Assembly (NCBI GenBank): GCA_012799185.1
Contig: JAAZLS010000074.1
Location: 781-64,780, forward strand
Source: Bacillota bacterium
GTDB taxonomy: Bacteria > Bacillota > Dethiobacteria > DTU022
DNA: 64,000 nt
Direction of reading: 5' to 3'
Below are positions 10,701-27,822 of the stretch, one piece after another; the first letter of the stretch is position 1, and each line of letters opens with the position of its first letter. A program made the position numbers and the translations under genes. The notes under the pieces are model-generated. The model saw only the letters and a list, made by a program, of their open reading frames with translations, did no database searches and was not told where the DNA came from.

Positions 10701-11315
10701 TTAATTTAGGGCTTTTAATAAGATTGTATAGGCTGCTGCCATTGCTCGCTCCATGTTAACTGCAGGGTTAAAATACCTTTCTCCAAAATATTGGGAGAAC
10801 CCCAGTATTGCTCCGGTTATGACCATATCCCGGTAGTACGGATCCCTCCCATCCCGGATCGCTCCCTCTCTAACCCCGCACTTGGCCAAATGATCGTATA
10901 TTTCATGGATTTTTGAAAGATGGGCCAACAGCTCGCCCCTGTACTCGGAAAGATACCCGTAAAATTCCTGGGTGGCTCCCACGGATAACAGAATCCTAAA
11001 AATCGAAATATTACTATCCACCTGTTCTGCAATTACATGCAGTATCTCGTGAAATTTGTTTTTAAATTTGGATTGATCTTTAACCCGTGTAAATGTGTGC
11101 TCTAGGCCAATTTTTATATAGTATAAGATGGCCCGGGATATAGCCTCTTCCTTGGATGAGAAATAATCATATAAGGTACCTTTACCGATATCCGCTTCAC
11201 TGGCTATATCTGAAACCTTGATCGTGTAAGGGTTTAATCCCTTCTCCATAAGAGCAATTACCCCATCGTAGACAGCCTTCCTCTTTTGCGGGTACCAGCT
11301 ATCCTCCAAGATCAT
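10701..11315 (-). CDS. TetR/AcrR family transcriptional regulator, translationally coupled (ATGA overlap) to the upstream RND pump gene
   Basis: 204 aa with an N-terminal HTH (AVYDGVIALMEKGLNPYTIKVSDIASEADIGKGTLYDYF) and a helical C-terminal ligand domain. Confidence 0.85.
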   Translation of the reverse strand: MILEDSWYPQKRKAVYDGVIALMEKGLNPYTIKVSDIASEADIGKGTLYDYFSSKEEAISRAILYYIKIGLEHTFTRVKDQSKFKNKFHEILHVIAEQVDSNISIFRILLSVGATQEFYGYLSEYRGELLAHLSKIHEIYDHLAKCGVREGAIRDGRDPYYRDMVITGAILGFSQYFGERYFNPAVNMERAMAAAYTILLKALN

Positions 11316-14300: not shown

Positions 14301-15193
14301 GTATCTCTTATCCCTTTCCGTAAAGCTTGTAGATTTTTCTCCCGGTCGTTTAACTCATCAAGCTTTGCCTGCAGCTCCTCCTGGACTTCATCTAGCCGCT
14401 GCTCACCGGTAGATATTTGAGCCAGGCCATCCTCCATCTCTTCCCTAGCAGCCCTTAAAGCCTCTTCCCCTTCAGCGAGCCTGGCCTCCTGTTTATTTTT
14501 TTCGGACTCCAGTTCCTTTCTTCCCTCTTCGATCTCTTTCTGCCCTGCGGCCAGCTTTTCTCCGACTGCAGAGAGACCGGAGGCCACCTTATCCAGGACC
14601 CTTTTGTTTATCCCCTCAATCTTTTGGTCGTCCAGTAGAACCTGAACCTTTTCTTCGATTAACCCGGCACCGGATACCGAGGCCACTCCTTCGACACTCT
14701 CCAATTCAGGAACTATTTTTTGTTTAACTAATTGGGAGATAGCCAAGAGATCCATATCCTCAACATCAACCGAGGCTACCATTATCGGAAGCATATCGGG
14801 GTTCAGGCGCATGAGCAGGGGGGCGCCTACGGTCTCGTTCCAGGTAGGCTTGATTAGATCTAGCATCCCGTTTATCTCGATGATAGCCGAATCCATATTA
14901 ACATCATGATTAAATTCCAAGATCACCATGGAGGAGTTTTCCCTGGAGATAGAACTTATGTTTTTTATATTGGCGGTGGTAGCCACCACCTGCTCGATAG
15001 GTTTTGTGACCACCATCTCGACCTCTTCCGGGCTCGCCCCGGGGTAGCTGGTCATAATTAAAAGGTAGGGCAGATCGATATCGGGCAGCAGATCGGTCTT
15101 TAAATTTAAAAAAGATATTGCCCCCAATATAAGTACAATTATAACTACTACAAATACCGTATAAGGCCGTTTTACACTGAACCTGGATAACAT
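11312..15193 (-). CDS. RND (HAE1/AcrB-like) efflux transporter with an internal ~280-aa coiled-coil insertion in the docking domain
   Basis: 1293 aa. AcrB-like TM1 plus a PN1 region, then a long E/K/L/A/Q heptad-rich segment (about residues 190-470), then resumption of the canonical RND sequence (DVARI...NG..AV...KQSGFSTAAVAGSL..., LVDNSIVVIENIYR). A normal second loop and TM8-12 follow (LVLSGVVVNNGIVFVDF). Confidence 0.85.
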   Translation of the reverse strand: MLSRFSVKRPYTVFVVVIIVLILGAISFLNLKTDLLPDIDLPYLLIMTSYPGASPEEVEMVVTKPIEQVVATTANIKNISSISRENSSMVILEFNHDVNMDSAIIEINGMLDLIKPTWNETVGAPLLMRLNPDMLPIMVASVDVEDMDLLAISQLVKQKIVPELESVEGVASVSGAGLIEEKVQVLLDDQKIEGINKRVLDKVASGLSAVGEKLAAGQKEIEEGRKELESEKNKQEARLAEGEEALRAAREEMEDGLAQISTGEQRLDEVQEELQAKLDELNDREKNLQALRKGIRDTLVALPRMDGDELKSTMAGILNQVPREMKDVLPPQLAEIERKLNSGEGISKVEAAQCLALLSQGLESGLETLASGREEINKGLDELAKQRAELAKNRQLILSQKGSLDGKEQEIRTAKFILAQEMDKARAQLESGEKELKGKQGEFESAKKEALKKASLDGTITPAMISGILGAQNFSMPAGTITESGGDYLVKVGDKFRCIEDLGEMVLFDTGEENIGKIYLKDVARISKVDNSGETYAKVNGNNAVMLTFQKQSGFSTAAVAGSLREKFEDISGQYDDLTITPLMDQGVYIDLVVDSVLNNVIYGGILAVLILLLFLKNIKPTLIIAVSIPISLIFAIAMMYFTGVAINIISLAGLALGVGMLVDNSIVVIENIYRLRNEGKSAVAASIEGAKEISGAIISSTLTTVCVFLPIVFVKGISRQLFVDMGLTIAYALLASLLVALTLVPAMASGTLQKVGAKRNKTFDRLAKIYVRALRWALGHRAAIILAVTVMMGLSLFLGLSMGTAFIPEMEAPQMSLFIELPDGEDSGDLVAISDTVTDRLMGLEGIKAIGAFQGGGMGGSGDSIIGGGLSGGSSNGYMNFYLLLDEEKKVKNSWVEEQILELTDDLNCEVSVSSSNMDISSLAGSGIEVLIKGRELDTLQEISADIASILEGVGGTTAVSDGIDESMAELRIVVDKEKAMENGLTVAQVYSNVSAAISKGKTATILSTPDKDYPVIVLDEAGQKIGKDDLRGLTMTVDKDGQKKEVALGDLFQINEGRGLAAINHDSLERYIAVTADIETGYNIGLVSREFQDKIKDYHLPEGYRIETGGENRLINTSLMDLVYMLILAIALIYLIMVAQFQSLLSPFIVMFTIPLAFTGGLIALFLTGYEISLISMLGFLVLSGVVVNNGIVFVDFTNQLREGGLDVREALVRAGETRLRPILMTAITTILGLSTLSLGVGTGAEMLQPLAIVSIGGLIYATGLTLLVVPVIYDLLHRERGEKMLEKRGE

Positions 15194-15277
15194 TTAAGTC
15201 CCCCGTTTTCTTCCTTATTCTCTAATGCTTTTATCTTGAACTTTCCCCCTGATTCCCCAGGACACCCAACATTTACC

Positions 15278-15330
15278 GACCGACCAGTCGGTCACTCATT
15301 GATCATAGGTGACCGGGGTGTGAATGTCAA
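15278..15330 (-). promoter_or_regulatory. Sigma-A-type promoter (TTGACA-17-TATGAT) with overlapping palindromic operators, candidate TetR sites, upstream of the RND gene
   Basis: Minus-strand reading gives TTGACA(15330-15325)-17 nt-TATGAT(15307-15302). Palindrome GACCGAC-CA-GTCGGTC lies at 15278-15293. Inverted repeat CGGTCAC/GTGACCG (15289-15295 / 15309-15315) flanks a central TGATCA. Confidence 0.45.
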
Positions 15331-15403
15331 ACCTTAAAGGGTAAGGTTCTTTGCCCGGTGGGTTACAGCCGAGGAAGTAATTTGGAGGGTGTTGGCATTT
15401 CAC

Positions 15404-16165
15404 TTACATATCGGGTGTGGGAATAATAACCGTTACACCATTAACCTTATGAACCATTACGGGGATTCCATAAATTGATTCGATGTTCTCGGGGGTCATG
15501 ATTTCAACCCCCCCGTAGGCAAAAATGGTGTTATTATCTAGAAATATAAACCGGTCACAATAACGTAAGGCCAGGTTTAAATCATGAATAATAATGATAA
15601 CAGAGATCCTCTCTGTCCGGGCGATCTCCCGTATAATGGCCAACACTTCATGTTGGTTGCCAAGATCCAGATTGCTGGTAGGTTCATCTAGGAGCAACAC
15701 ATCGGGCTGTTGGGCCAATGCCCGAGCGAGGATAACTTTTTGCATCTCCCCTCCGGAGAGCTCATCGATATAACGCAGGGCAAAACTACCAAGCCTCATT
15801 CGCTGGATTACCGACTCTACAATTTGATAATCTTCCCGGTTAGGTTCAAATGTAATGTAGGGCTTCCGCCCCAACAAAATGGAATCATAGACGGTTAACC
15901 GGTCCCTAACATTACGCTGGGCTACGTAAGCCATATGTTTTGCAATATCATTTTGATTAAGGTTATAAATATTTTGCCCGTTAACATAGACAATCCCCTG
16001 CTGGGGTTTCAAAATGCGATTGAGACACTTAATTAAGGTACTTTTACCTGCTCCATTATTCCCTAAAATAGCCGTACATTGCCCCCTGGCCGCGCAGAAT
16101 TCGATGTTTTTTAAAATTGGCTGGCTCCGCTGATAGGAGAATGCAAGTTTTTGAACATTAATCAT
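15404..16165 (-). CDS. ABC transporter ATP-binding protein (iron-siderophore/cobalamin FecE/FhuC type)
   Basis: Walker A GNNGAGKST, signature LSGGEMQK and Walker B LLLDEPTSNLD. Confidence 0.85.
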   Translation of the reverse strand: MINVQKLAFSYQRSQPILKNIEFCAARGQCTAILGNNGAGKSTLIKCLNRILKPQQGIVYVNGQNIYNLNQNDIAKHMAYVAQRNVRDRLTVYDSILLGRKPYITFEPNREDYQIVESVIQRMRLGSFALRYIDELSGGEMQKVILARALAQQPDVLLLDEPTSNLDLGNQHEVLAIIREIARTERISVIIIIHDLNLALRYCDRFIFLDNNTIFAYGGVEIMTPENIESIYGIPVMVHKVNGVTVIIPTPDM

Positions 16166-17214
16166 CTTCTACCCACCCCCTTATATACCAGGTAAATAAA
16201 CATCGGAGCACCAAGGAAAGAGGTTATGGCTCCAATCGGAAGTATAATTGGGGCCAAGACGAGGCGGGCCGCTATATCGCTGGCCAATAATAAGAGAGAG
16301 CCGACCAATGCCGTCACCGGTAACAGATAACGGTAGTCGTTCCCAACTAGCGGCCGCACAATGTGGGGTGCAATTAGCCCGATAAAGTTAATGATACCGA
16401 TAAAAGAGACAATTATTGATGCAATTAAAGAGGAGATAAACATCGATAAAATAAGCAAGCGGGTTACATTTACACCTAACCCTTTTGCCGTCTCCTCCCC
16501 ACTTAGTAACGCATTGAAATTCCAACGGTTTAAAATAAAATAAATCAACGCTAACAGGGTTGCCACCGCCATGATGGTCACTTCATTCCACCCGGCCCGC
16601 CCTAAATCACCAAACGTCCAAAACACAACAGCGGCAACCTTCACATCTTCAGCGAAATATTGTAGTAGCGTGGTCGCCCCGGCAAATAGGGCGCCCAAGG
16701 CTACACCGGATAGCACCATGGATTCCGGGGTCACCTTCTTAATGTGCGACAATCCCAATATGATGAAGGTAGATAAAAGAGCACCCATAAAGGCACAGAT
16801 GGAAACCACGTAAGGGTTGGAGAAAGATACACTTTCCAGGGTTTGATACTGCGTCCCGGCACCTAAAACAATAATTGCAAATGAAGCACCAAATGCCGCC
16901 CCCTGGGAGATCCCCAATGTGGTCGCCGATGCCAGGGGGTTATGAAGAATGCACTGCATAACACAGCCTGCACTGGCCAGGCCAATCCCGGCTACAATTG
17001 CAACGATGACCCGGGGTAAACGATAGTTAAAAATTATGACTGACGCTTGCCCACTGCCATAACCTAAAAAGGTCGCTAGCACCTCTTTCAGGGGTAGACC
17101 CGCCGAACCGGCGCTGACCGCCACCAAGGCGGCCAGCACCACAATTAGTAACACGAAAAGAATCAAAACCTTTTTATGGCGGATATACCCCTGATATGTT
17201 ACTATGTTCCTCAC
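16162..17214 (-). CDS. ABC transporter permease, FecCD family
   Basis: 350 aa polytopic with FecCD-like length and composition; overlaps the ATPase gene start. Confidence 0.85.
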   Translation of the reverse strand: MRNIVTYQGYIRHKKVLILFVLLIVVLAALVAVSAGSAGLPLKEVLATFLGYGSGQASVIIFNYRLPRVIVAIVAGIGLASAGCVMQCILHNPLASATTLGISQGAAFGASFAIIVLGAGTQYQTLESVSFSNPYVVSICAFMGALLSTFIILGLSHIKKVTPESMVLSGVALGALFAGATTLLQYFAEDVKVAAVVFWTFGDLGRAGWNEVTIMAVATLLALIYFILNRWNFNALLSGEETAKGLGVNVTRLLILSMFISSLIASIIVSFIGIINFIGLIAPHIVRPLVGNDYRYLLPVTALVGSLLLLASDIAARLVLAPIILPIGAITSFLGAPMFIYLVYKGVGRR

Positions 17215-17220
17215 TCAATC

Positions 17221-18315
17221 TCATTCCCCGATAGTCATTTTTTCAAACCTGTAACCATCAGCAGCTAGCTGCTCATAAAAAGGTTGGCCCAACATTACAG
17301 TAAAGATTTCATCAGCTTTTTTAATAATATCTACATCGGCAAACTGTTCGGGATAGATTACCTTACCCGCATAATAGGCATCGGCAATCGCCAGTTCCAT
17401 ATTAGTCCAATTGCAGGTATAAGGTATCTGGGAATATAGCTCCCCATTTCTTACCGCCTTCAGGTTATCATAAAATGCACTATTTTTAGCATAATCCTCA
17501 TTAACAAGATGCATGTTAGCAGGATTGAGAAAGATGATATCCGGATCCCACATGGTAATCTTCTCCATATCAACAAGGAACGCCACCGATTTGGGGTTGC
17601 TAATTTCATCAACGACGTTTTTAGCATGGATAGCGGTGAAAGGCGGGTACAATGCATGGGTGCCGTCAATGCCATGGGCCCCACTAAAGCTAACCGCACC
17701 AGTGTAGACGGTAGGCTTCCCTTCATCCGGTATATCCTTTGTGCGGGCATCCAGATCCGCCTGGCATTCTTTTATATAATCAATCACCCGGGAGCAATGT
17801 TCCTCAACACCCATAATTTCTCCAATCAACTCTAGTGCCGAATAAAAGGTCTCGTCAAACATTCCCTCGGGATAGATGCCGACAGTTGGAATCCCGGTCT
17901 TATCCGCAACATTTTGGGCGGTACTCTCATCCGTCTGTGCAAAAATAACATCTGGGGCGACCCTAATTAACTCTTCAATAAAGGGGGTTTCGTTGGGCCC
18001 CCCATTTGAAACAGAGGCGATGCCAGCAAAATGTTCCGCATTGATAACGGTAAAGGGCATTTTTGAAACATTATCCTTGTTCATTTCCGTAACGCCGACC
18101 AATTTATCCGCACAGCCAGCATAGGTAAGAATACGGGCTGCCCCACCGATGGCGGCAATGGTTTCAACCTCCCCGGGGATCTCCACCTGCCTGCCGAAGG
18201 CATCGGTAACTAAGCGACCCTCCTGCACCGACAGAGGCGTTGATACATAGGATACGCAACCGCTAAAAATAAGGGCAGTTACCAAAACAGCTCCCAGAAG
18301 TGTTTTCTTAAACAT
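17221..18315 (-). CDS. Periplasmic-binding-protein (class III, FecB/BtuF-like) lipoprotein for the iron-complex/B12-type ABC importer
   Basis: Signal peptide with lipobox LIFSGC; 364 aa SBP; RBS AAAGGAG upstream. Confidence 0.8.
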   Translation of the reverse strand: MFKKTLLGAVLVTALIFSGCVSYVSTPLSVQEGRLVTDAFGRQVEIPGEVETIAAIGGAARILTYAGCADKLVGVTEMNKDNVSKMPFTVINAEHFAGIASVSNGGPNETPFIEELIRVAPDVIFAQTDESTAQNVADKTGIPTVGIYPEGMFDETFYSALELIGEIMGVEEHCSRVIDYIKECQADLDARTKDIPDEGKPTVYTGAVSFSGAHGIDGTHALYPPFTAIHAKNVVDEISNPKSVAFLVDMEKITMWDPDIIFLNPANMHLVNEDYAKNSAFYDNLKAVRNGELYSQIPYTCNWTNMELAIADAYYAGKVIYPEQFADVDIIKKADEIFTVMLGQPFYEQLAADGYRFEKMTIGE

Positions 18316-18468
18316 TTTTTAGGAATCACTCCTTTTACTAAATAATAAAAAGAAACTATCAAGGGAGGTTTTCAAACTTCCCATATAGTTTCTTACTATA
18401 ACCTTTATCAGTATCAAGTTGTTATTAAATCTAATAGTTACAGGGTTACAGGCATTCTGCCTGCATTT

Positions 18469-18487
18469 AAATGTTTTATAAACATTT
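18469..18487. promoter_or_regulatory. Perfect 19-bp palindrome AAATGTTT-TAT-AAACATTT in the 340-bp leader of the iron/B12-type ABC operon; candidate metalloregulator operator
   Basis: 8-3-8 inverted repeat read directly from the sequence, about 155 nt upstream of the SBP start codon. Confidence 0.3.
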
Positions 18488-18653
18488 AATCTTTTGATTA
18501 GTATACCACCGACCAACCTTTGGGTCAAGGAAAATCCTACCGGTGGTTAAGGCGCATCGAGCATGGCGGAGAGATACTCGCCGGAGACAGAGCTGTAGAA
18601 GAAACTGTTGATAAGCGCCCGCCTACCGCTCTACCCACGTTTGCCTAAAAGTC

Positions 18654-20192
18654 TTACTGCGTTTTATCCGCTGGCCTGACCTCCAGATAATAATGGGGAA
18701 TACTGGGATCCAAGAGAACCTCATCAATCCCATTTTCCAGATCAAAGCCATGGTTCTGGCGGACGATCACGGTCTGCTCTGTGTTGCAAACCGCGGCAGT
18801 CACTACCGTAAATTCCAGGTTGCTCCCCAGGCGGGTGACCAAATCATAACCGTGTATACCCTTATTCTCAGCGCCGTTGCAATGGAAATCGTAGCTCGGC
18901 TCTTTGTGCAGGGAGGCCGTTACCGAAGCGCTCTCTCCGGCAGGGATGGTTACCGGGAATTCCAGGTAAAAGATCCGGTCCAGGTTTCTGGTTTCTGAAA
19001 TAATATCTTCGACCATTCCCATCTCATAGCGATCACGAACAGAGCCGGAAAGCGGGCCATACTCCAGCATAAATCCGGACATCATCCCGAGAAACATCTC
19101 TTTGGGCACGGCAAGCTCTTCCCCATCGCCGTATTTTGAGAAGAAATTATCCACCAGATCACCGAGGATGGCAGACAAAAGCCCCTCGCTTCGGGTGATG
19201 GTTGCCGATACGCCGGCAAGCTCATTGCTTTTTTCGCAGGCGCCATTTTTATAGCCTTGCAAGGCGTACTCCCCGATGTCCTCACCAATGACAATGATAT
19301 ATTTTTCTTCGCTTTCTCTGCGGCTTCCGCCAGGCACGAAGTAGCTGAAGCGCCGCCAGCCCTCCTCGCCATATTCACAACCGTTAAAGCCGTAGAGCAA
19401 AATAGTGGTTTTTTCAGGATCGATATTAAAGCTGATGGCCTGGGTTGCAGCGTCGAACTCCTCAAGGGGCGCCTTGAAATCAGTAAAGCTGTAGACCGTC
19501 ACCGGTTGGGATAGGGTGGGATAAGCCGCCAAAGCACCTGCCTGGTAGCTCCCGTTCTCCAGAAGTGCTTTGTATTCTTCCCAGGAGTCAAGTTGTAAAA
19601 TGTTTGCGCTGCCCTCCGGGTCATCGACGCCGTAGGCCCCGGTAAAACCGCCCGAATATCCGCCCGGATGGAGCGCCGGGGAAACCGCCTGACCATTCAC
19701 CGTGATCACAGGCATCTGCCTTGCCAGCTTCCTAAAGCTTCCGACAAAGGGGTAAAGAGCACTTACCGTGCACTCCTGTCCCGAAATATTGGTGAGGAGA
19801 TGGCTGTCTTGCACCTTTGCCCCCCATAGAAGAAGTGAATCCTCGCTGGCCAGGGAGAAATCGTAGCTGATATGGCGGCCGGCGCTGATTCCGCTTTCTG
19901 CCTCAGCCAGCGTCAGGGGGAACATGGGCCCCGCGTAGGACATGAATACGGAGCTGCCCTCGGGATGGCCGGCTCCGCCGCCCCCTCCGGAGCCACCGCC
20001 AAAGGGAAAAAGATCCTGCCAAAACATCATGCTGCCAAAACCTACCACCAGGATGATACCGGCGGCTAGGGCAGCCCAAGTCTTCCATCTGGGACGGGAA
20101 GTATTCAACTTTCTATCCTGGGCATCTTCCACAAGAGCGGTGCGAATCCCGGTGATCGCGTTAAATAGTTTTATTTCGCTCTCCTGACTCAT
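18654..20192 (-). CDS. Hypothetical membrane-anchored protein (cytoplasmic N-tail, single TM, Gly-rich linker GGGSGGGGGAG, large extracytoplasmic domain)
   Basis: 512 aa. The TM segment is WAALAAGIILVVGFGSMMFW. No recognisable catalytic motifs. Its ATG overlaps the stop of the small upstream ORF (ATGA). Confidence 0.6.
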   Translation of the reverse strand: MSQESEIKLFNAITGIRTALVEDAQDRKLNTSRPRWKTWAALAAGIILVVGFGSMMFWQDLFPFGGGSGGGGGAGHPEGSSVFMSYAGPMFPLTLAEAESGISAGRHISYDFSLASEDSLLLWGAKVQDSHLLTNISGQECTVSALYPFVGSFRKLARQMPVITVNGQAVSPALHPGGYSGGFTGAYGVDDPEGSANILQLDSWEEYKALLENGSYQAGALAAYPTLSQPVTVYSFTDFKAPLEEFDAATQAISFNIDPEKTTILLYGFNGCEYGEEGWRRFSYFVPGGSRRESEEKYIIVIGEDIGEYALQGYKNGACEKSNELAGVSATITRSEGLLSAILGDLVDNFFSKYGDGEELAVPKEMFLGMMSGFMLEYGPLSGSVRDRYEMGMVEDIISETRNLDRIFYLEFPVTIPAGESASVTASLHKEPSYDFHCNGAENKGIHGYDLVTRLGSNLEFTVVTAAVCNTEQTVIVRQNHGFDLENGIDEVLLDPSIPHYYLEVRPADKTQ

Positions 20193-20407
20193 ATATTCAC
20201 CCCTTTTTCTGTTAAATACGCCCGCAGGCTTTTGCGCAGACGGAACATTCGCCCGGCCAGCTTATTTGGCGCAGTATCTAATTTGCCTACAGTAAGCATG
20301 GCGTTTGGTCCCATCATTGTAGCTTTCAGGAATTCAACATTTTTATCACTGGACATAAACCGATCAGTAAATGGATACATGGTGTTCACCCTTTCCAACT
20401 TCGGCAC
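20189..20407 (-). CDS. Small ORF whose C-terminus weakly resembles the sigma-70 region-4 recognition helix
   Basis: GTG start; 72 aa. NKLAGRMFRLRKSLRAYL resembles the TVKSRLHRARKKLREYL-type helix. There is no region-2 equivalent, and the upstream in-frame extension is at most about 30 codons. Confidence 0.3.
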   Translation of the reverse strand: MPKLERVNTMYPFTDRFMSSDKNVEFLKATMMGPNAMLTVGKLDTAPNKLAGRMFRLRKSLRAYLTEKGVNI

Positions 20408-20573
20408 ACAAAATGGCCGCTCCCCTACTACTTCCCCATAGTTAGCGCTACAAGGGGTAAGTTTGACAGTAGTTGCTGCAATGGCCTTCTTTCTCTACAA
20501 AAACAGGGAATTCCTCTTTGCAACTAGCAGTGTAAACTCCTTTTTTGCCACAAAACCCTCATAATCCGCCGGA

Positions 20574-20900
20574 TCAAGTCAAAGTATTTGCGGTAAATTC
20601 ATCCGCCTTATCCTCTGCTTCACCTTTAGCAAAATCGTAGTCAACTAGCTTATCCTCGATATCACCATTTATGATGTGACCAATTTCGTGGAAAAATGTG
20701 AACCAAAACATATCGGCAAATTTCCGCCTTGTAGTCATAAGCAAGTTTAAGGTGCTATCATCATTCTTTTTAATCACGCCTTGGACAGGAGCGCCCCTAA
20801 AGTTTTTGACAATAGAAAACTTAATGCCGCACTCAGCCAGATAGGTTTTTAATCGGGATTGGACATCGGCCACATCTTCAAACATCAGTTCTTTAATCAA
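20574..20900 (-). CDS. ImmA/IrrE-family metallopeptidase-like protein (short, possibly a remnant)
   Basis: HEIGH zinc-binding motif inside FFHEIGHIINGD. 108 aa is shorter than typical ImmA. No cognate XRE-family regulator is adjacent. Confidence 0.5.
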   Translation of the reverse strand: MIKELMFEDVADVQSRLKTYLAECGIKFSIVKNFRGAPVQGVIKKNDDSTLNLLMTTRRKFADMFWFTFFHEIGHIINGDIEDKLVDYDFAKGEAEDKADEFTANTLT

Positions 20901-20913
20901 AGGGATCTTATCC

Positions 20914-21000
20914 TATATTTTGTACCTGGTGAAAATGATAGGGGTGAAGATTATTATAATTCACTAACTGAAGTACCCCATATTTTTGGGCCTATTGGTG
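20914..21000 (+). repeat. 87-bp direct repeat, copy A (about 96% identical to copy B at 23144-23230); derived from a metallophosphoesterase coding fragment
   Basis: Aligned by eye with 3 mismatches over 87 bp. Encodes YFVPGENDRGEDYYNSLTEVPHIFGPIG. Confidence 0.7.
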
Positions 21001-21021
21001 GGTGCAAAATTAAAATGGGGG

Positions 21022-21085
21022 GGCACAATATCCTTTTGCTTGAAGCCCTTACCTTGAGCCTTTCCTAACCTATCCCATAACAAAA
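21022..21085 (+). repeat. Degenerate copy (about 70-75% identity) of the ssrA 3'-flank/terminator region found at 24534-24604
   Basis: Shared blocks ATATCCT..TGCTTGAAG..CTTACC..AGCC..TTT..AACAAAAAACCCGC occur in the same order. Confidence 0.45.
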
Positions 21086-21132
21086 AACCCGCTACGGGAG
21101 CACAAGGGGACAGACACAGGGGGACTGTCCCC
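21080..21132 (-). terminator. Tandem hairpins plus T-tract terminating the PadR-cassette operon
   Basis: GGGGACAG...CTGTCCCC 8-bp stem, then CCCGTAGCGGG followed by TTTTTTGTT on the minus strand. Confidence 0.4.
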
Positions 21133-21172
21133 ATTATTCCCAATAAATAATTCAGTAAAGCGACCCCTGTAT

Positions 21173-21760
21173 TTAGAATATATCATCCGGCATGATATAA
21201 GGCTGGATGGCGAAGCTCTCTGCGATAAAGGATTTAACGTAGGACCGGTCTTTCAGGGGGCGCTGGACCATTTCCGCCCACTTTTCTTCATTTTGGAGGG
21301 CCGAAAGGTCCAGGCCGTAGCAGCCTTCCAGCACGCAGCGGGATATGGTATAGGAAATTCCCTGGTAATTTAAAACCAGGGTATCCAGATTACCGATCAG
21401 CACGAAATTGGCGGTGGCAGCATAGATCAGGGCCTGTTCAAAAAGCCCTTCCTCGAATTCAGTCGGGGTAGCCTGATAATAGATCTCGGCCATTAGACTA
21501 TCGGGATGGAGCTGAAATCTTTTCGGGATTTCCCCCAACGGCAAATTGGCGTTCAAGTTGGCCAGATTGGAGGCATCGCCCATGTAGGGGCTTTTGAATT
21601 TTAGCAGCCTGCCAAAATCATGGGTCAGGGGATCCGCCTGCTCAGCAATGTAGCGCTCCTCCTGCGCTTTCATCCGCGGTTTGATGTACCCCTCTACCAA
21701 AACCAGTCCCAGAATTCCCACCGCCACAAGCAAGATGATCAGGATATTTCTTTTTCTCAT
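21173..21760 (-). CDS. Hypothetical signal-anchored protein, third gene of the PadR cassette
   Basis: Probable start MRKRNILIILLVAVGILGL (N-terminal TM). No identifiable motifs. Confidence 0.5.
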   Translation of the reverse strand: MRKRNILIILLVAVGILGLVLVEGYIKPRMKAQEERYIAEQADPLTHDFGRLLKFKSPYMGDASNLANLNANLPLGEIPKRFQLHPDSLMAEIYYQATPTEFEEGLFEQALIYAATANFVLIGNLDTLVLNYQGISYTISRCVLEGCYGLDLSALQNEEKWAEMVQRPLKDRSYVKSFIAESFAIQPYIMPDDIF

Positions 21761-21761
21761 T

Positions 21762-22445
21762 TTATTCTTCCTTCCCGTGTTTCTCCGCCAGGGCGCAGGC
21801 TTTGCCAAAGAGCAGGGGGATAATCAGGGTGAGCAGGGGCAGTGCGTAGTTCAGAACGATCAGCGCAAACTGGTAAGGCCCCCCGACATGGGGGAAGCGG
21901 CCGAACCAGAGATTGCTGCCGAAGTACTTGAGCGTGTTCAAAACAGCGCTCAGCGCCATGTAAAGGATCCAGATCAGCCAGGCTGCTTTGCGGAAAAGGT
22001 GCAGCCTTTTTGAATTCAGGGGCGCAGCGGCCTCCCGGGATTCGCCCTTCATGCGGAATGAGCCTAAAAGAAACAAAATCCCCAGGATGAGCAAGATCAG
22101 GGCGAGGGCCGTATTGACAAAGATCCCCGTGGGCAAAATCCGGGCGGGGATGGTCGCCAACCAGGCGATCAGGAGGTAAAGAAGGGCGCTCTGCAGCAGC
22201 TCCAGGCGGAAGCGGTTTATGTAAACCGGCTTCCGATCCGGCAGCAGATCATCAACCGAATCGAGGGAGCCCTTCGCTTTGGAAAGCGCCTCCTCGTAAA
22301 CCAATCCCTGCTCCAGATAGTCCGCCAGCCGGGCTTCCAGATTCCCCAAGACCTCATTTTTCAATTCCCTTGACTCGGCGCTCTTGTGTCCGGCAAAGAG
22401 CCGATCCACATAATTTTTTAGATCATCTCTCGAATTATCTGCCAT
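21762..22445 (-). CDS. PadR-associated membrane protein (DUF1700-like: N-terminal helical cytoplasmic domain plus C-terminal TM segments)
   Basis: 227 aa. The N-terminal charged helical region (DDLKNYVDRLF...EEALSKAKGSL) is followed by 3-4 TM segments. It overlaps the stop of the PadR gene. Confidence 0.55.
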   Translation of the reverse strand: MADNSRDDLKNYVDRLFAGHKSAESRELKNEVLGNLEARLADYLEQGLVYEEALSKAKGSLDSVDDLLPDRKPVYINRFRLELLQSALLYLLIAWLATIPARILPTGIFVNTALALILLILGILFLLGSFRMKGESREAAAPLNSKRLHLFRKAAWLIWILYMALSAVLNTLKYFGSNLWFGRFPHVGGPYQFALIVLNYALPLLTLIIPLLFGKACALAEKHGKEE

Positions 22446-22797
22446 CTGTCTGCTCCTCCTCCGGCTGCCGGATCAGGCGATCGATCAGATTTCGCGCCGA
22501 TCGCCATGCCTTCAGGTTTTCAATGAATTGGGTCCGGCCCGCTTCCGTGACCCGATAATATTTTCTGCGCCCCCCCTGGGTCTCCTCGCCCCAGTAGGAT
22601 TCCAGGGCGCCCTGGGTCTCCAGGCGGCGCAGCGCGGAATAAAGGGTGGGCTCTTTTAGTTCAAATTCCCCGCTGCTTTTCAAATAGATCTCCTTGATGA
22701 TCTGATAACCGTAATTGTCCTCCTTCTGCAGCACGCTCAAAATAATGGTGTCGATACTTCCCCGCACCAGATCGCTGTTCAATGCGGATTCAGCCAT
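22435..22797 (-). CDS. PadR family transcriptional regulator
   Basis: 120 aa winged-HTH with the PadR hallmarks GSIDTIILSVL...NYGYQIIKEI...EPTLYSALRRLE..G. Confidence 0.85.
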   Translation of the reverse strand: MAESALNSDLVRGSIDTIILSVLQKEDNYGYQIIKEIYLKSSGEFELKEPTLYSALRRLETQGALESYWGEETQGGRRKYYRVTEAGRTQFIENLKAWRSARNLIDRLIRQPEEEQTDGR

Positions 22798-22827
22798 AAA
22801 ATCACCTCGCTGTCCCTTGTAAATAGC

Positions 22828-22856
22828 AATGTATCACGTATTACTATGTGTGTCAA
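22828..22856 (-). promoter_or_regulatory. Sigma-A-type promoter TTGACA-17-TACATT upstream of the PadR gene
   Basis: Minus-strand reading gives -35 at 22856-22851 and -10 at 22833-22828, with RBS GAGGTGA before the ATG. Confidence 0.4.
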
Positions 22857-22915
22857 TATACTATTTGTAATCTATCTTTGTCCGGTGATATTATCGCCAC
22901 TAGAATGCCCAGTAA

Positions 22916-23233
22916 GTGTTATTTTGGTGGTTTGAAAATTTCACTTTAAAGGTTACTAACAAAAAAATATGTGGTTCAAAAGTTAACAACGAAATTAAAA
23001 TCGTGCATTTAACCGATCTGCATGGTGCTGAATTTGGGAAAAACAATAAATCTCTTATTAGTAAAGTTAGTATACTTTTGGCAAGGACCATGAAAAGAAA
23101 ACAGCAATCAATCTAATGGCGGAACTGGCTCAAACAGTTCCGGTATATTTTGTACCTGGTGAAAATGATAGAAGTGAAGATTATTATAATTCACTAACTG
23201 AAGTACCCCATATTTTTGGACCTATTGGTGTGG
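22916..23233 (+). pseudogene. Fragmented calcineurin-like metallophosphoesterase gene
   Basis: The N-terminal fragment IKIVHLTDLHGAEFG (GDxHG-type motif) and the downstream fragment VPVYFVPGENDRSEDYY (GNHD-block-like) lie in different frames, separated by a stop. The second fragment is repeat copy B (23144-23230). Confidence 0.5.
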
Positions 23234-23462
23234 GATGCCCTCAGCAGTGAGATGTTTGGAGATGGCTCATATTACCCCGAAGCTACACCGATTAAGCATG
23301 AATGCTACGCTGTGTCAAAATGGTTGGTTCCTGAAGTTGAACATACAATATATTACTGTTATTCCTGCTCGGCCCTTTTCATAATACCCTTACAAAAATG
23401 CAGTAGCCCTGGCGCTGGCCCGGTTTCCCCTCAGAAAAGCCCCTAAGATTATCACCTACCTG

Positions 23463-24434
23463 TTGTGGGCGGTAGCAGGTTTCCGGCTGGTGTTCCCTTT
23501 CCCCATCCGGGGTTTATTTAGCCTGCTTCCCTTTAATTCCGCCCCCATCCCGCTGGATCTAGCCGCGCGGGCAATCCCGCAGATCGAGAGCGGAATCTCC
23601 CTCATCGACAAAGCCGTCAGCAGCGCCCTCCCCGCCGCTTTGCCCGCTGTAGGAGTCAGTCCGTTACAGACCTGGCTGACGATCGGCTCATCCATCTGGC
23701 TGGCCGGGGTTATGATTATGTTGCTCTACAGCATCCTCACCATAATCCGGTTGAAGCGGCAACTGCGCTCTGCGGTAAATGTTGAGGATAATATCCATGA
23801 AACAGCCAATCTTAAAACCCCGTTTGTAATCGGGCTGCTTCACCCGCAAATCTTTATCCCGGCCGGGTTGGACCCAGAAGAGCGCCGTTACATAATTTTA
23901 CATGAGCAGATACATATCAGGCGGCACGATCCGGCCATAAAAATATTGGCTTATTTTATACTCTCCCTCCATTGGTTCAACCCCCTTGCCTAGCTGGCTT
24001 TCCTGCTGATGAGCACCGATATGGAAATGTCCTGCGATGAACGAGTGCTAGGAGAGCTGGGCAGCCAGATAAAAATCGCTTACTCCCGGTCACTGATCTG
24101 CCTGGCAGCGGGAAAACCTATATTTAACGGCAGTCCCCTCGCCTTTGGGGAAGGCCGAATGAAAGAAAGGATTGATAACGTGTTGAATTTTAAGAAACCT
24201 TCGAGGGTGAGCATCATTTTTGCCGTTATTCTAGTAGCAGCTCTAGGACTTGGACTGACACTCAACCGTGATTTTCGGGAACCGGTCGGGCCCGGTGAAA
24301 TTAACCGAAATACACCCGGGCTGACCATCACCACCCCCCGCGATCTTTATTCCCCGACTATGAGCTCCATCTTCGGCTTTGAGCTAGTGGTGCAGGAAAA
24401 TATTTATGAACAACTGAAGCGCTATGTTAAATAG
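23463..24434 (+). pseudogene. BlaR1/MecR1-type M56 peptidase-domain gene, 5'-truncated and interrupted by an in-frame TAG (23991-23993)
   Basis: The HEQIHIRRHD (HExxH...) motif is followed, after the in-frame amber codon, by the M56-typical EMSCDERVL block in the same frame. The N-terminal TM1 is not encoded in frame upstream. No BlaI-like repressor is adjacent. Confidence 0.6.
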
Positions 24435-24589
24435 TCCTCAAAAAGGGACTATTTTGCTTTAGACCCCGCCCTTTACCGGTGTGAAATCCCCCGTTTTGCG
24501 CCCGTCACCTAAACTTATGCACAAAAACACATGGGAGCGATATCCTGGTGCTTGAAGTTCTTACCCTAAGCCCTTTAAGCCCCTTCGGC

Positions 24590-24618
24590 AACAAAAAACC
24601 CGCCATTTACGGCGGGCC
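24590..24618 (-). terminator. Rho-independent terminator of ssrA (GCCCGCCGTAAATGGCGGG + TTTTTTGTT)
   Basis: Hairpin plus T-tract about 30 nt downstream of the tmRNA 3' CCA, read on the minus strand. Confidence 0.55.
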
Positions 24619-24647
24619 GAGATTGTATCAATTCCTGTTACTTAATA

Positions 24648-25001
24648 TGGTGGAGGCGGCGGGAATCGAACCCGCGTCCGAAAGCCCGGTTATAGAAACT
24701 TCTACAGGTTTAGCCCCCGGTTCATTCTTGCCCTGCCGGATCCCCGGAGCCCGATCCTTTCAGGGCCAGCTTCGTTAGAATTCCCCCGGTGGTGGTGAAG
24801 CAACCGCCCCCGAGGTAGACCGGCTTAGTGACGCTCCCATCCTCCCCCCCGGCCAGGGAAAGGGGGGAACGCGCTACTTTTAACTAAGCAGCGTAAGCTA
24901 AATTATCGTTGGCGTTTATAGCCGTTCCATGTTTTTACCAGGCCATGGTCCTGGACCTGCCGTTCCTATCTCCTAAACCCTCGTCGAATCCTTACGCCCC
25001 C
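24648..25001 (-). ncRNA. ssrA: tmRNA (SsrA), 354 nt
   Basis: 5' GGGGGCGTAAGGATTCGACG and 3' GGGTTCGATTCCCGCCGCCTCCACCA tRNA-like ends with a G3:U70 pair. The internal tag ORF GCC AAC GAT AAT TTA GCT TAC GCT GCT TAG encodes (A)ANDNLAYAA. Lies adjacent to smpB. Confidence 0.85.
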
Positions 25002-25031
25002 ATATCTTAATAGCTCATTATATTAATTTGC

Positions 25032-25493
25032 TTAACGGTAACTTCTTTCTTTTAAAGCCCTTTCCGCCTCCCGCTGGCTTTCCTTTTCCCGAAGGACCTG
25101 CCTCTTATCATACATCCTTTTCCCCCGGGCCAGGGCCAGCTCTACTTTAACCAGGCCGCCTTTCAGGTAAATCCTAAGCGGCACCAGGGTATATCCTTTC
25201 TCCCTTACCCTACCATCCAGCCGGTCGATCTCCCGGCGGTGCATCAGAAGCTTCCGCCGGCGCAACGGATCGTGGTTAAAACGGTTGCCGGGATCGTAGG
25301 GGCTGATGTGAACGTTACATAAAAACAGCTCGCCGTCATCAACCTGGGCATACCCGTCTTTAAGATTTACCCGGGCCTGGCGCACCGACTTGACCTCAGT
25401 CCCGGTTAGAACAATCCCCGCTTCGTAACTCTCATCAATAAAATAGTTATGGTAGGCCTTGCGGTTCCGGCTGATTACTTTTACTTTTTCCAC
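25032..25493 (-). CDS. smpB: SsrA-binding protein SmpB
   Basis: 153 aa. The sequence ([13 protein letters not shown]...GTEVKS...) is SmpB-typical. Synteny rnr-smpB-ssrA. Confidence 0.9.
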
Positions 25494-25686
25494 CTGTTAT
25501 TCCCCACCATTTTGTGCACCATGCACGGTCGGGCCGATAAATCAACCCTATCGATCCAGTTGGCATTACACGGATCAAATAGGGCTGTCTGCGTTCCCTC
25601 CATGAAAATAATAACATACCCGGTAACCGGCTGTCAACAATCGATTAAACCTTCTTGCAACTTGGGGAGCCGTTATCTTCCCCCCC

Positions 25687-27822
25687 TCATTTCACCAGGC
25701 TAAAGGTAATATTGCCATCCCGCCGGCTGGTCCGCTCTACCCGAACCCGTACCTCATCACCCATTCGGTAAATTTTTCGGCGCCGTTTCCCGATTAGAGA
25801 GGCCTGCTTTTCCATGTACACATAGTAATCATCATCCAGATCGCTAAGGGGAATCATTCCCTCGACCGTGTTTTCCAGCTCTACAAACATTCCAAAATTG
25901 GTTATTCCACTAATGATGCCACTGAATTCCTCCCCGATCTTGTTTTCCATGTACAGGGCTTTCGCCAGGTCCTCATCGGCTCTCTCCGCCTCCATGGCCA
26001 GCCGCTCCCGTTCAGAGGAGTGGCGGGCAATCTCCGGTAGGCGAGATTGCAAGAAGGATCGCCGTTTAGCCGAGATATTTGCCGCCAACCCGTATTCACT
26101 TAGTAACCGGTGAACCATCAAATCCGGATAGCGGCGAATAGGGGCGGTAAAGTGAGTATAACAGGGGGAGGCCAGTCCAAAATGCCCCTCATTGGCAGCA
26201 CTGTAACGAGCCTGGGCCAATGAACGTAATAACAGGTATTTGAGCAATCGTTCTTCCTTTTGCCCTTTTGATCTCGCCAGTAGTTGATTCAGCTGGTGCT
26301 GGGTAATCTGGCCCGGTTTACCCGGTAACTGGTATCCTAAGAAACTAATTGCTTCTTTGAATGCCTTTATTTTCTCTTCTTCGGGAACACCATGGGCCCG
26401 GTATAGCCCGGGTAATTTTTTTTGGTTAAAATGGGCGGCGATCGCTTCGTTGCAAAGAATCATGAACTCTTCGATCAAGGATTCAGCCCGGCCTTGATTC
26501 CGCCGTTCGATGCTGATCGGATAACCCCGCCGGTCCAGTTTGATCTCTGCCTCCGGGAGGTCCAGATCCAGGGCTCCCCTCTGTAGGCGTCGTTCTCTTA
26601 AAGCCCCGGCCAGCCGGTCCATATTACTGATGCGTTCCATTATCTTTTCCCGGCCCCTACTGTAACCACTATTTTCCAGATAGGATTGAACCTGCCGATA
26701 GGTCAGGCGCTGCTTTACCTTAATCACGCTAGGAAAATACCGGTAACCAAAGAGTTTCCCCTCTTGGTTAATATCCATCAATACTGTTAGCGCCAGCCTC
26801 TCCTTGCCGGCCTGCAGGCTGCACAACTGTTCGGAGAGTAGGGGGGGCAACATGGGCAGGGCCCGGTCTACCAAGTAGATACTACAACCCCGGTTATAGG
26901 CCTCTTTATCCAATGGCCCGCCCTCACGGATGTAGAAAGATACATCGGCGATATGCACACCCAGCTGGTAACGCCCGGGGGCCGGCCCCTTTTCCAAGGA
27001 GATCGCATCGTCAAAATCCCGGGCCGTTTCACCGTCGATAGTAACAGTAAATAGATCCCGTAGATCCCGCCGTCCCTGTTCCCGGGCAATCTCCCCAATT
27101 CTATCTTCCCCGGGAAGGCTCTTTAGTTCCTTTATTACTTCTTTCGGGAATTCCCCGGGCAGGTTAAATTTATACCGGATCGATTTCTGGTGAGCCTGGA
27201 TGGAGTCGGCCGGTCCAAGTTTTTCCACTACCCTCCCCTGTATCTTCTGCCCGGCTTCGCCCCAGTGATCAATTTTGACCGCTACCTTCTCACCGGAGTA
27301 GGTTCCTTTTAGGTCCCTGGCAGAGACCTCCACAGCCTGGGGCAGGCAGCGTTCATCGGGCACTACATAGCAACGCCTTCCTTTACGTTCTAGGGTCCCC
27401 ACCAGCCGGTTGCTTCCCCGCTTTAAAATCGAGGTTACCTCCCCTTCCTCCCGGCGCCCCCGACTATTTTTGCCAAGCCGAACCAGTACCCGATCCCTAT
27501 GGACCGCTCCCCTCAGGTGGCGGGCCTTAATATAGATATCCTCCCTCCCGGAAAGATCCGGTTTTAAAAAAGCAAAACCCCGGCGGTTACCCTGTATGGT
27601 ACCGGTTATATAACTGGCTCCCCGCTTGGTGCCAGAGGCAGCTATAAACCCCCGGGATAGTAGCTTCCCCAGTTGCTGCTTTAATGCTGACCGGTCTTCA
27701 CCCGGTAGTATTATTGAATTTACCAGCTGGTCATAGGTTAATGCTCTTTTCCTGGGCCGGGAAAGGGTACGCATTAGCCTTGGTGCAAGTAAAGGCTGTT
27801 TTCTGTTCTTCTTTAACTTCAT
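25687..27822 (-). CDS. rnr: Ribonuclease R
   Basis: 711 aa with an RNB catalytic domain plus a C-terminal S1 domain (GIISGITNFGMFVEL). Conserved position between secG and smpB. Confidence 0.9.
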   Translation of the reverse strand: MKLKKNRKQPLLAPRLMRTLSRPRKRALTYDQLVNSIILPGEDRSALKQQLGKLLSRGFIAASGTKRGASYITGTIQGNRRGFAFLKPDLSGREDIYIKARHLRGAVHRDRVLVRLGKNSRGRREEGEVTSILKRGSNRLVGTLERKGRRCYVVPDERCLPQAVEVSARDLKGTYSGEKVAVKIDHWGEAGQKIQGRVVEKLGPADSIQAHQKSIRYKFNLPGEFPKEVIKELKSLPGEDRIGEIAREQGRRDLRDLFTVTIDGETARDFDDAISLEKGPAPGRYQLGVHIADVSFYIREGGPLDKEAYNRGCSIYLVDRALPMLPPLLSEQLCSLQAGKERLALTVLMDINQEGKLFGYRYFPSVIKVKQRLTYRQVQSYLENSGYSRGREKIMERISNMDRLAGALRERRLQRGALDLDLPEAEIKLDRRGYPISIERRNQGRAESLIEEFMILCNEAIAAHFNQKKLPGLYRAHGVPEEEKIKAFKEAISFLGYQLPGKPGQITQHQLNQLLARSKGQKEERLLKYLLLRSLAQARYSAANEGHFGLASPCYTHFTAPIRRYPDLMVHRLLSEYGLAANISAKRRSFLQSRLPEIARHSSERERLAMEAERADEDLAKALYMENKIGEEFSGIISGITNFGMFVELENTVEGMIPLSDLDDDYYVYMEKQASLIGKRRRKIYRMGDEVRVRVERTSRRDGNITFSLVK

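Follow-up and report, generated by a model that had tools for sequence, protein, structure and literature searches.

A direct repeat around a PadR operon near tmRNA: probably the scar of a microhomology-mediated rearrangement in a decaying region

Insertion of a transposon or IS element usually duplicates 2–15 bp of target and brings in a transposase gene and terminal inverted repeats, and a relative lacking the element is expected to keep an uninterrupted target. A site-specific integrative element is expected to carry or adjoin an integrase or recombinase gene and to lie between att repeats corresponding to a conserved attachment site, such as the 3′ end of a tRNA or tmRNA gene. In microhomology-mediated (RecA-independent) tandem duplication and deletion, a microhomology joins the end of a segment to the beginning of one upstream of it, and later deletions, also at microhomologies, leave short direct repeats around the genes that survive. 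Islands associated with tmRNA (ssrA) start at the tmRNA 3′ end and vary in content between relatives and strains. Here we describe a locus in a 64-kb stretch of Bacillota DNA (the window) in which an 87-nt direct repeat, R1a and R1b, brackets a three-gene PadR operon near tmRNA (Table 1). We hold, with a probability of about 0.7, that this repeat was left by an illegitimate, microhomology-mediated rearrangement of a variable region in decay and does not mark the insertion of a cassette.

The locus departs from the first two systems in several respects. Its repeat measures 87 nt; neither 21001 nor 23143 has inverted repeats, and the only inverted matches close by are internal (23 nt at 78%); there is no transposase between the repeats, where the ORFs encode PadR, a perm_prefix membrane protein and DUF4825; and the relative with an uninterrupted metallophosphoesterase (MPE) gene still has the operon. 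Instead of the 3′ end of a tRNA or tmRNA, R1 consists of an MPE coding fragment and 27 nt. Duplication–deletion is matched by a segment end joined to an upstream segment start at 4–6 nt of microhomology, by later deletions with microhomology and by the short direct repeats left around surviving genes; the difference is that the end product alone is seen here, with 87 nt of the first duplicate surviving. With tmRNA-associated islands the locus shares the start at the tmRNA 3′ end, the variable content, low-GC patches, pseudogenes (ImmA-like, M56 and MPE) and the presence of the tmRNA 3′ flank in more than one copy; unlike them, the window has no integrase, duplicated tmRNA 3′ core or recognisable att pair, and the 87-nt repeats are not island ends.

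Table 1. Features of the locus (positions in the window; strand given as +, − or., the last for segments without one).
Feature	Position	Strand	Remarks
ImmA/IrrE-like (M78, HEIGH motif) pseudogene	20574..20913	−	N-terminus cut at R1a junction; also frameshifted in this strain; fragment at 20574–20900
R1a, secondary copy	20914..21000	+	20914–20973, MPE codons about 115–134; 20974–21000, 27 nt non-MPE
Segment b	20997..21027	.	homologous sequence of L105/L106 (sister lineage) lies about 890 nt away from R2a
R2a, PadR operon terminator region	21028..21132	−	diverged paralog (76%) of R2b, the terminator region just downstream of tmRNA
DUF4825 protein	21173..21808	−	Pfam DUF4825 E 3.1e-10; dN/dS 0.19–0.20
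227-aa membrane protein	21762..22445	−	N-terminal helical ‘permease prefix’/HAAS-like domain, then multi-TM region; dN/dS 0.23–0.34
PadR-family winged-helix regulator, 120 aa	22435..22797	−	Pfam PadR E 2.5e-22; resembles TIGR03433; dN/dS 0.14–0.15
PadR operon promoter	22828..22868	−	TTGACA, 17 nt, TG-n-TACATT; near-consensus extended −10 at 22856–22828
MPE pseudogene, original position	22916..23203	+	codons about 25–134 of the intact 254-aa gene
R1b, original copy	23144..23230	+	left flank runs on into MPE coding as in L106; 23204–23230 non-MPE
Segment e, 155-nt filler, 43% GC	23231..23385	.	between MPE stump and M56 pseudogene
BlaR1/M56 peptidase pseudogene	23386..24434	+	without N-terminus; in-frame stop 23991–23993; without BlaI partner
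R2b + tmRNA terminator (24597–24618) + flank F (24620–24647)	24540..24647	−	immediately 3′ of tmRNA
tmRNA (ssrA)	24648..25001	−	ARAGORN; Rfam 181 bits; smpB and rnr upstream; anchors the variable region

The two copies agree at 84 of 87 positions (96.6%; BLAST E 1.4e-35) and are the only ones in the 64 kb, where 28- and 32-nt sub-patterns of R1 each occur exactly twice, shuffles giving an expectation of 0. Contigs from six ENA assemblies (L002, L003/L093, L004, L005, L091 and L092) have copy A between identical flanks, and four of them (L002–L005) also span copy B. Identical junctions across six independent metagenome assemblies rule out an assembly artefact, and the 96% identical repeats around the PadR cassette that were described in an earlier note on this DNA are thus real and fixed in these assemblies. 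The three differences between the copies are the same in all four assemblies covering both, and copy A does not vary among the six; gene conversion keeping the copies alike is thereby ruled out. An exact 23-mer of R1 had no match in viral and JGI metagenome contigs, and neither R1 nor the second repeat, R2, folds into significant structure. A hairpin at 23120–23142, abutting R1b, was dropped as a candidate recombination signal: it is ordinary MPE coding sequence and is present in contig L106 of a sister lineage too.

The repeat had been read as a fragment of an MPE gene, which holds for part of it. An exhaustive HMMER protein search matched the copy-B region to P0084, an intact 254-aa MPE with 96% identity over 45 aa, and base-level alignment assigns only nt 1–60 of R1 to MPE coding, nt 61–87 (‘VPHIFGPIG’) being non-MPE in both copies. 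The full-length P0084 gene matches Pfam Metallophos with E 1.7e-12 (48.6 bits against a cutoff of 21.5); the remnant in the window alone is sub-threshold (E 0.039). It was only the exhaustive search that settled the identity: the stitched MPE peptide gave no hits in a word-indexed protein search, sub-threshold matches only in Pfam, and a misleading match to SCO1 in the PDB (E 0.2), and blastn of 22830–23400 against phages and plasmids found no match. The sister gene resembles the calcineurin-like, membrane-anchored metallophosphoesterases of the YkuE/YaeI type (PF00149) in its N-terminal TM helix and in its motif order (D-L-H-G, G-D, S-H, G-D-T-H-G-G), but its third motif is G-E-N-D in place of G-N-H-D/E; the window, unlike this type, keeps only a frameshifted part of the gene.

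The contigs of the sister lineage, L105–L107, are 96% identical to the window. In L106 and L107 the intact MPE gene adjoins the same PadR/227-aa/DUF4825 operon, divergently transcribed, at the position of the MPE remnant in the window, and there is a single R1 equivalent. It follows that the cassette never split the MPE gene: one sister-lineage contig suffices to show that no ‘interruption’ by the operon ever took place. We regard as established that the order kept in this lineage, namely a membrane ORF, R2a, the DUF4825, 227-aa and PadR genes on the minus strand, the intact MPE gene on the plus strand and the R2/F flank, would be the ancestral layout, L105/L106 being taken as the less derived state from its intact genes.

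The MPE gene of the window carries three lesions: 463 nt are missing from its 5′ part at 22915|22916; at 23069|23070 a deletion of 40 nt shifts the frame and takes out the GD motif; and at 23203|23204 its 3′ part is cut off. As aligned with the sister gene, it decayed in place through three events unrelated to the cassette, which we likewise count as established, and everything past codon 134 was replaced by foreign DNA carrying the broken M56 gene. Copy B is indeed attached to an N-terminal phosphoesterase fragment in another frame, as the earlier note had it: the two are contiguous, and the frame is shifted by the 40-nt deletion. The R1 unit spans the truncation point, with 60 nt of MPE and 27 nt of foreign DNA. 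Since both copies end with the same 27 foreign nt, the duplication came after the truncation, so that the copy was made once the gene was dead; this order of events, too, is firm.

The flanks distinguish original from copy. To the left of R1b lies uninterrupted MPE sequence colinear with the intact gene of L106, and to the left of R1a a truncated ImmA-like gene; R1b is in its ancestral context, and the flanks of R1a are non-ancestral on both sides, segment b being the other. At both of the A/B differences within the MPE part L106 matches R1b, so R1a carries the derived states. The proposal that insertion or duplicative recombination destroyed the phosphoesterase gene therefore fails on two counts, the gene being intact beside the same operon in L106 and L107 and the truncation predating the copying of the repeat. 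Comparison with related genomes, which the earlier note had recommended in order to find an intact phosphoesterase gene without the cassette and the cassette at other loci, found the intact gene beside the cassette, not without it, and did find the PadR operon at other loci in relatives; the intact frames in L106 and L107 come close to what the note itself had named as speaking against its reading.

The description of copy A as an isolated scrap next to an ImmA-like fragment is borne out, and the ImmA-like gene is truncated at its N-terminus. The fragment matches Pfam M78 weakly (E 0.005); among 72 homologs, the full-length ones have 215–276 aa, with at least 70 extra N-terminal residues, and in strain L002 the version has 168 aa and lacks the 1-nt insertion. 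The ImmA-like homologs are found in defence islands, in contexts that show no connection with MPE or R1. On the other side of R1a, window 20997–21022 matches nt 1–26 of L106 at 92%, and the left edge of segment b overlaps the end of R1a via the microhomology GGTG(T)G, which is present where R1b passes into e, where b begins in L105, and at the R1a|b join of the window. This microhomology is short, 4 nt if exact and 6 nt if one later substitution is allowed, and by a rough approximation at least 4 nt would be met by chance in about 2% of cases. The b|R2a join of the window has the microhomology GGGnGCA. In L106, homology to the tmRNA-side R2 copy extends to 127 nt.

How did an 87-nt copy come to lie beside an unrelated gene? 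We infer that a tandem duplication of roughly 3 kb, from b to R1, could have occurred via the GGTG(T)G that the R1-to-e boundary has in common with the beginning of b, creating the novel R1|b join. A later deletion from inside the neighbouring ImmA-like gene into the first duplicate would have left only its last 87 nt, R1a, and the loss of about 890 nt in another microhomology deletion may have brought b beside R2a. The full tandem-duplication intermediate was not seen in the retrieved contigs, for which the collections were queried by exact protein or short exact DNA words.

The same end product would result from a single replication template switch copying 87 nt. In such a one-step templated patch (MMBIR/FoSTeS-like), the nascent strand, during repair or replication of a break in the ImmA-like region, would have switched to the R1b region, copied 87 nt and switched again to b via GGTG(T)G, and the intervening DNA would have been deleted without a tandem-duplication intermediate. 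It draws on the same junction evidence as the duplication, needs fewer events, and the patch is short and copied from only 2–3 kb away; against it, the left junction, TTATCC|TATATT beside TTCCGG|TATATT at the flank of R1b, shows no visible microhomology. To our knowledge, templated patches of such length are poorly documented in bacteria, which also counts against it. The present data fit either tandem duplication with later deletion or a template switch, and we regard the one-step patch as an unlikely route, if the strongest of the alternatives.

The rearrangement took place in what is, as a whole, a variable, decaying patchwork downstream of tmRNA. From tmRNA to tRNA-Ala(cgc) the distance is 14 kb in the window against 2.4–3.1 kb in the relatives L013 and L022, each of which has different cargo. 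The M56 pseudogene shows as Pfam matches on two adjacent ORFs (profile positions 36–227 and 236–295), and segment e matched nothing in the loci fetched, the phage collection or the plasmid collection. Among nine ORFs between tRNA-Ala and tmRNA scanned against Pfam, with ORFs outside 18000–27000 taken from 100 aa upwards, there was no integrase; the scan gave PadR, DUF4825, M56, weak M78, TetR, AcrB, ABC-transporter parts, or nothing. tmRNA was the only Rfam family found in 18–26 kb, and no partial tmRNA 3′ copies that could be att scars occur in the window. The best match in an SmpB scan of the genome collection, from which the species itself is absent, was 80%, and L012, the closest relative with sequence downstream of tmRNA, shares no R2.

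Such surroundings suggest a different origin of the repeats, by tandem accretion: two related integrative islands, each with an ImmA-like gene, an MPE gene and an R2/F-type end, would have integrated successively at the 3′ end of tmRNA, and their decay would have left R1a–R2a and R1b–R2b as remnants. Two nested direct-repeat pairs in the same order, the neighbourhood of tmRNA as a classic integration site, low-GC patches in a genome of 52.6% GC, and the copies of the tmRNA 3′ flank F in the sister lineage, which end at the exact nucleotide where the tmRNA of the window starts, are all consistent with this. However, the shared lineage-specific truncation junction indicates that both R1 copies came from one decayed MPE copy, and an integrase-less wreck is unlikely to have integrated twice; the R1 pair is 97% identical and the R2 pair 76%, which makes the pairs of different ages; R2a and R2b-like copies are both present in the sister lineage, which has a single R1, so that R1a arose separately and later; and the window contains neither an integrase nor partial tmRNA copies. 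Two islands are thus improbable, slightly more so than the patch. Equally doubtful is the idea that the module of about 4.3 kb in the sister lineage (membrane ORF, PadR/HAAS-like/DUF4825 operon and MPE), bounded by direct copies of F, is an integrase-less mobile island that entered the tmRNA 3′ flank, mobilised in trans or by flank homology, with the PadR membrane-stress operon as cargo; were this true, the window would hold a decayed copy, and the operon would owe its other location in the next-nearest species to real mobility.

The weakest reading, to which we give next to no credence, is that a previously intact phosphoesterase gene was split and destroyed when the PadR cassette entered it and 87 bp of target were doubled, by a very long target-site duplication or a Campbell-type single crossover of an R1-carrying circle, the repeats then being the boundaries of the cassette and recombination between them able to excise it: high-identity direct repeats around a compact, self-sufficient operon would accord with this, as would the operon's position elsewhere on the chromosome in the nearest other species (and in more distant relatives), where DNA homology is confined to promoter through stop codon and implies movement as a unit at some time, but the sister-lineage gene lies beside the operon and not around it, the MPE N-terminal fragment (segment d) would belong to the insert yet is colinear, with R1b, with the intact gene, the junction common to both copies means a gene already truncated, R1a is flanked on its left by an unrelated truncated gene instead of MPE, the 2.2-kb unit has no recombinase, transposase, integrase or terminal inverted repeats in or around it, and the excised state is absent from the contigs examined. 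The idea that the repeats delimit a mobile cassette is accordingly abandoned, the single R1 equivalent in L106 and L107 included in the reasons.

A tidy operon is not shown to be a mobile cassette by the direct repeats around it, and an attractive but wrong inference is here corrected. On our preferred reading, the rearrangement scar, the locus offers a base-resolved example of a tmRNA-adjacent variable region decaying by microhomology-mediated deletion and duplication while selection preserves a regulatory operon. It is of modest value for annotating Syntrophomonadaceae-like biogas MAGs, and the locus is to be annotated as MPE, M56 and ImmA pseudogenes with an intact PadR operon.

The operon in the middle is simply a surviving functional gene set. 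It had been called self-contained, with its own promoter and terminator, and this stands: the extended −10 promoter is followed by three genes, all on the minus strand, and by a hairpin with a T-run at about 21088–21132, as read from the sequence, and dN/dS values of 0.14–0.34 point to an intact, conserved unit under purifying selection. Upstream, DNA homology to the operon of the relative L094 stops at 22868. The pairing of PadR with the 227-aa gene, the two sharing an 11-nt overlap at the end of padR, is kept in L094, L097, L099 and L106. A standalone padR overlapping a gene for an N-terminal helical domain plus multi-TM region, under a strong promoter of its own, is reminiscent of HAAS–PadR-like wHTH dyads (PMC11237479) and of PadR repressors of membrane-protein operons (PMC6624303). 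From such family knowledge, PadR and the HAAS-like protein probably act as a membrane-signal dyad, keeping their own operon repressed as long as no membrane signal comes in. The partner in such a dyad is expected to have a three-helix HAAS domain of the DUF1700, DUF1129 or DUF1048 type at its N-terminus. Unlike the described dyads (PMC11237479), the 227-aa protein is below the Pfam HAAS/DUF1700 thresholds and matches perm_prefix_1 (NCBIfam NF038403; 31.6 bits against a cutoff of 30), and the third gene encodes DUF4825. In its small family of 11 clusters, one of 11 members matches Pfam HAAS PF22564 (E 0.0085) and none matches DUF1700; a profile search of the PDB gave nothing informative. The DUF4825 ORF has 211 aa from a TTG start, or 195 aa from the ATG at 21760 used by gene callers, and its product shares 79% aa identity with the L094 ortholog.

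The 87-nt direct repeat is best read as a rearrangement scar of an ordinary and well-understood type, left in a variable region that is decaying around a conserved PadR operon. The two copies, R1a and R1b, are identical at 84 of 87 positions, and sub-words of 28 and 32 nt taken from them occur exactly twice in the 64 kb and not at all in shuffled sequence. Six independent ENA metagenome assemblies have contigs colinear with the window (identity 99.5-99.8% over L002-L005), and R1a has identical flanks in every one of them. R1b is also spanned in four of them (L002-L005), where the three differences between the copies are unchanged and a single site of R1b varies. The repeat is thus real, its A/B differences being constant wherever both copies are visible, and the direct repeats bracketing a PadR cassette described in the earlier note are borne out.

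Features of the locus (window coordinates)
Feature	Position	Strand	Remarks
tRNA-Ala(cgc)	10476-10551
R1a	20914-21000		direct repeat copy, 87 nt
R2a	21028-21092		terminator region of PadR operon
DUF4825 protein	21173-21760/21808	minus
227-aa membrane protein	21762-22445	minus	NCBIfam perm_prefix_1, 31.6 bits (cutoff 30)
padR	22435-22797	minus	Pfam PadR, E 2.5e-22
PadR operon promoter	22856-22828		near-consensus TTGACA-17-TGnTACATT
R1b	23144-23230		direct repeat copy, 87 nt
BlaR1/M56 peptidase pseudogene	23386-24434		N-terminal part (~35 Pfam-profile positions) missing; in-frame TAG at 23991-23993
R2b	24540-24603		terminator region just 3' of tmRNA
F, ~30 nt	24620-24649		between tmRNA terminator and tmRNA 3' end
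tmRNA	24648-25001	minus	preceded by smpB and rnr

The repeat had also been read as a fragment of a metallophosphoesterase (MPE) gene, and this identification holds. When the R1b ORF (23071-23247) served as query in an exhaustive HMMER search, the match was P0084, an intact 254-aa protein of a sister lineage that is 96% identical over 45 residues and has an N-terminal transmembrane helix and the motifs DLHG, GD, GEND, SH and GDTHGG; its gene matches Pfam Metallophos (E 1.7e-12). A stitched MPE peptide gave no match in a word-indexed protein search and only sub-threshold Pfam matches, and its PDB match to SCO1 was non-significant.

The gene for P0084 is carried by contigs L106, L107 and L108. 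On the first two of these, this intact MPE gene directly adjoins the PadR/227-aa/DUF4825 operon, with divergent transcription; the sister-lineage operon matches window 21026-22915 at 96.3% identity, and L106 has only one R1 equivalent. A further contig, L105, found independently via an R2 word, shares with L106 an overlap of 100% identity and reaches further to the left. The earlier note had proposed that insertion or duplicative recombination of a mobile cassette destroyed the phosphoesterase gene. Since the sister lineage has both the operon and an undamaged MPE gene, placed alike relative to each other, this proposal is refuted in its main point, and the cassette did not insert into MPE.

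Base-level alignment against L105/L106 defines the lesions of the window instead. A 463-nt deletion at 22915/22916 has taken out 24 codons of MPE together with the region upstream of the gene, and a 40-nt deletion at 23069/23070 has removed the GD motif and shifted the frame, which explains why the N-terminal phosphoesterase fragment had been seen in another frame. MPE homology ends after nt 60 of R1 (23203/23204), the final 120 codons being replaced by 27 nt, the 155-nt filler e (23231-23385) and the M56 pseudogene. To the left, a deletion of ~890 nt between R2a and segment b (20997-21027), which lies to the right of R1a, has removed a low-GC membrane ORF; left of b, the window has R1a and an ImmA-like fragment, whereas L105 has unrelated sequence. 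Three Logan contigs (L006, L009 and L010) begin exactly at 23203, the MPE truncation point.

In R1, 60 nt come from MPE and the other 27 nt do not, and the junction between them is present in both copies, so the 87 nt were copied after the gene had been truncated. R1b is the original, since its left flank passes uninterrupted into MPE and L106 matches it at both of the differences inside the MPE part; R1a has breakpoints on both sides. The right join of R1a to b falls in GGTG(T)G, a motif that occurs where R1b meets e (CCTATTGGTGTGGGAT) and where b starts in L105 (TTAGAGGTGTGTGCAAAA); in the window the sequence of the join is CCTATTGGTGGGTGCAAAA. By a rough approximation, the chance of a microhomology of at least 4 nt is about 2%. 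The deletion between b and R2a has the microhomology GGGnGCA. The simplest history of R1a would comprise three steps: a tandem duplication, mediated by microhomology, in which the ~3 kb between b and R1 inclusive were doubled, producing the R1/b join; a deletion that began inside the ImmA-like gene and ran into the first duplicate, leaving 87 nt; and the b/R2a deletion at GGGnGCA. A one-step template switch that copied these 87 nt, a less probable route, would lead to the same end product as the duplication and deletion.

In the operon itself, the 227-aa membrane-protein gene and padR overlap by 11 nt, and hairpins followed by a T-run can be read from the sequence at ~21088-21132. The dN/dS values of the three genes, 0.14-0.34 against both L106 and L094 (a relative carrying the operon elsewhere), indicate that all three are functional. 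The family of the 227-aa protein is small (11 clusters), and its operon context is always PadR/X/DUF4825. From family knowledge (PMC11237479), the PadR repressor is likely controlled by the N-terminal helical domain of its membrane partner. By sequence this domain is a borderline case for HAAS: Pfam HAAS (PF22564) matches 1 of 11 family members (E 0.0085), and DUF1700 is not hit. In the MAG of the nearest other species (GCA_964585925.1; SmpB 80% identical), an ECF-sigma/290-aa pair and comEC flank the operon, and in two further relatives it adjoins ecfA1A2T. Homology at the DNA level is confined to window 22868-21176, from promoter to stop codon (81%). These differing neighbours and the confined homology show that the operon changed location at some point. 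As its proteins (72-86% amino acid identity) have diverged to a degree similar to smpB, relocation within the lineage would fit better than recent foreign acquisition.

R1 is located between tmRNA and tRNA-Ala(cgc), an interval (10476-24648) of 14 kb, as against 2.4-3.1 kb in two related Syntrophomonadaceae MAGs. Its cargo differs between relatives: methyltransferases in one of these MAGs (L013), a catalase-peroxidase in the other (L022), and in the window TetR with an AcrB-like pump, a FecCD-type ABC uptake system, a 512-aa membrane protein and, in the 4 kb nearest tmRNA, a patchwork of the M56/BlaR1 pseudogene, low-GC scraps (31-43% GC vs 52.6% for the whole window), the intact PadR operon and a truncated ImmA/IrrE-like gene. 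The M56/BlaR1 gene is a pseudogene in all strains seen, and no BlaI/MecI-type repressor lies upstream. Compared with its homologs of 215-276 aa, the ImmA/IrrE-like gene has lost 70 or more residues from the N-terminus, the loss falling exactly at the R1a boundary. Neither an integrase nor a transposase was found among the scanned ORFs, nor a partial tmRNA copy in the window.

Strains differ at 20529-20620: L002 (5420-5969) has a 168-aa ImmA-like ORF, which in the window is truncated to 108 aa by a 1-nt insertion, with other DNA beyond, and sequence left of 20529 also differs. An ImmA-like homolog (67% identical) adjoins Wadjet (JetA/JetB/JetC-like) genes on JGI metagenome contigs (L100/L101, 1-2500), and the HTH-M78 family of this gene seems to travel in defence islands. 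A 72-aa ORF (20189-20407, minus) weakly matches an ECF sigma factor C-terminus (small pairwise test, E 0.006) and is followed by the 512-aa membrane protein (18654-20192, minus), which has no family match; the two may be a truncated sigma/anti-sigma pair.

The second, weaker direct repeat pair, R2, is 76% identical, and its homology is longer in the sister lineage (127 nt; L106 855-981 and 4148-4242); R2 possibly represents a duplication of the flank downstream of tmRNA. The adjacent flank F recurs twice in the sister lineage (L106 4208-4243; left end of L105, reverse complement 1-60), bracketing a 4.3-kb module that comprises the membrane ORF, the PadR operon and MPE. In both copies similarity ends at the exact base where the window tmRNA begins, and L105 has an additional inverted copy of 21 nt, identical to the window version. 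F is a possible att-like or recombination site. Many assemblies with identical smpB end inside tmRNA. Together, the F copies and contig ends suggest that recombination has recurred at the 3' end of tmRNA, with co-existing variants; they are also the basis for reading the 4.3-kb module as a mobile island at this flank, which is improbable. Six independent assemblies with identical SmpB (L110, L111 and L113-L116) end 24-222 nt past smpB, just before or inside tmRNA, which suggests assembly-graph branching from co-existing variants beyond that point. Immediately past the right-hand F copy of the sister lineage lies a low-GC 312-aa ORF (L106 4391-5329, minus), with no Pfam match and a C-terminal CxxC...CxxC zinc-ribbon-like motif.
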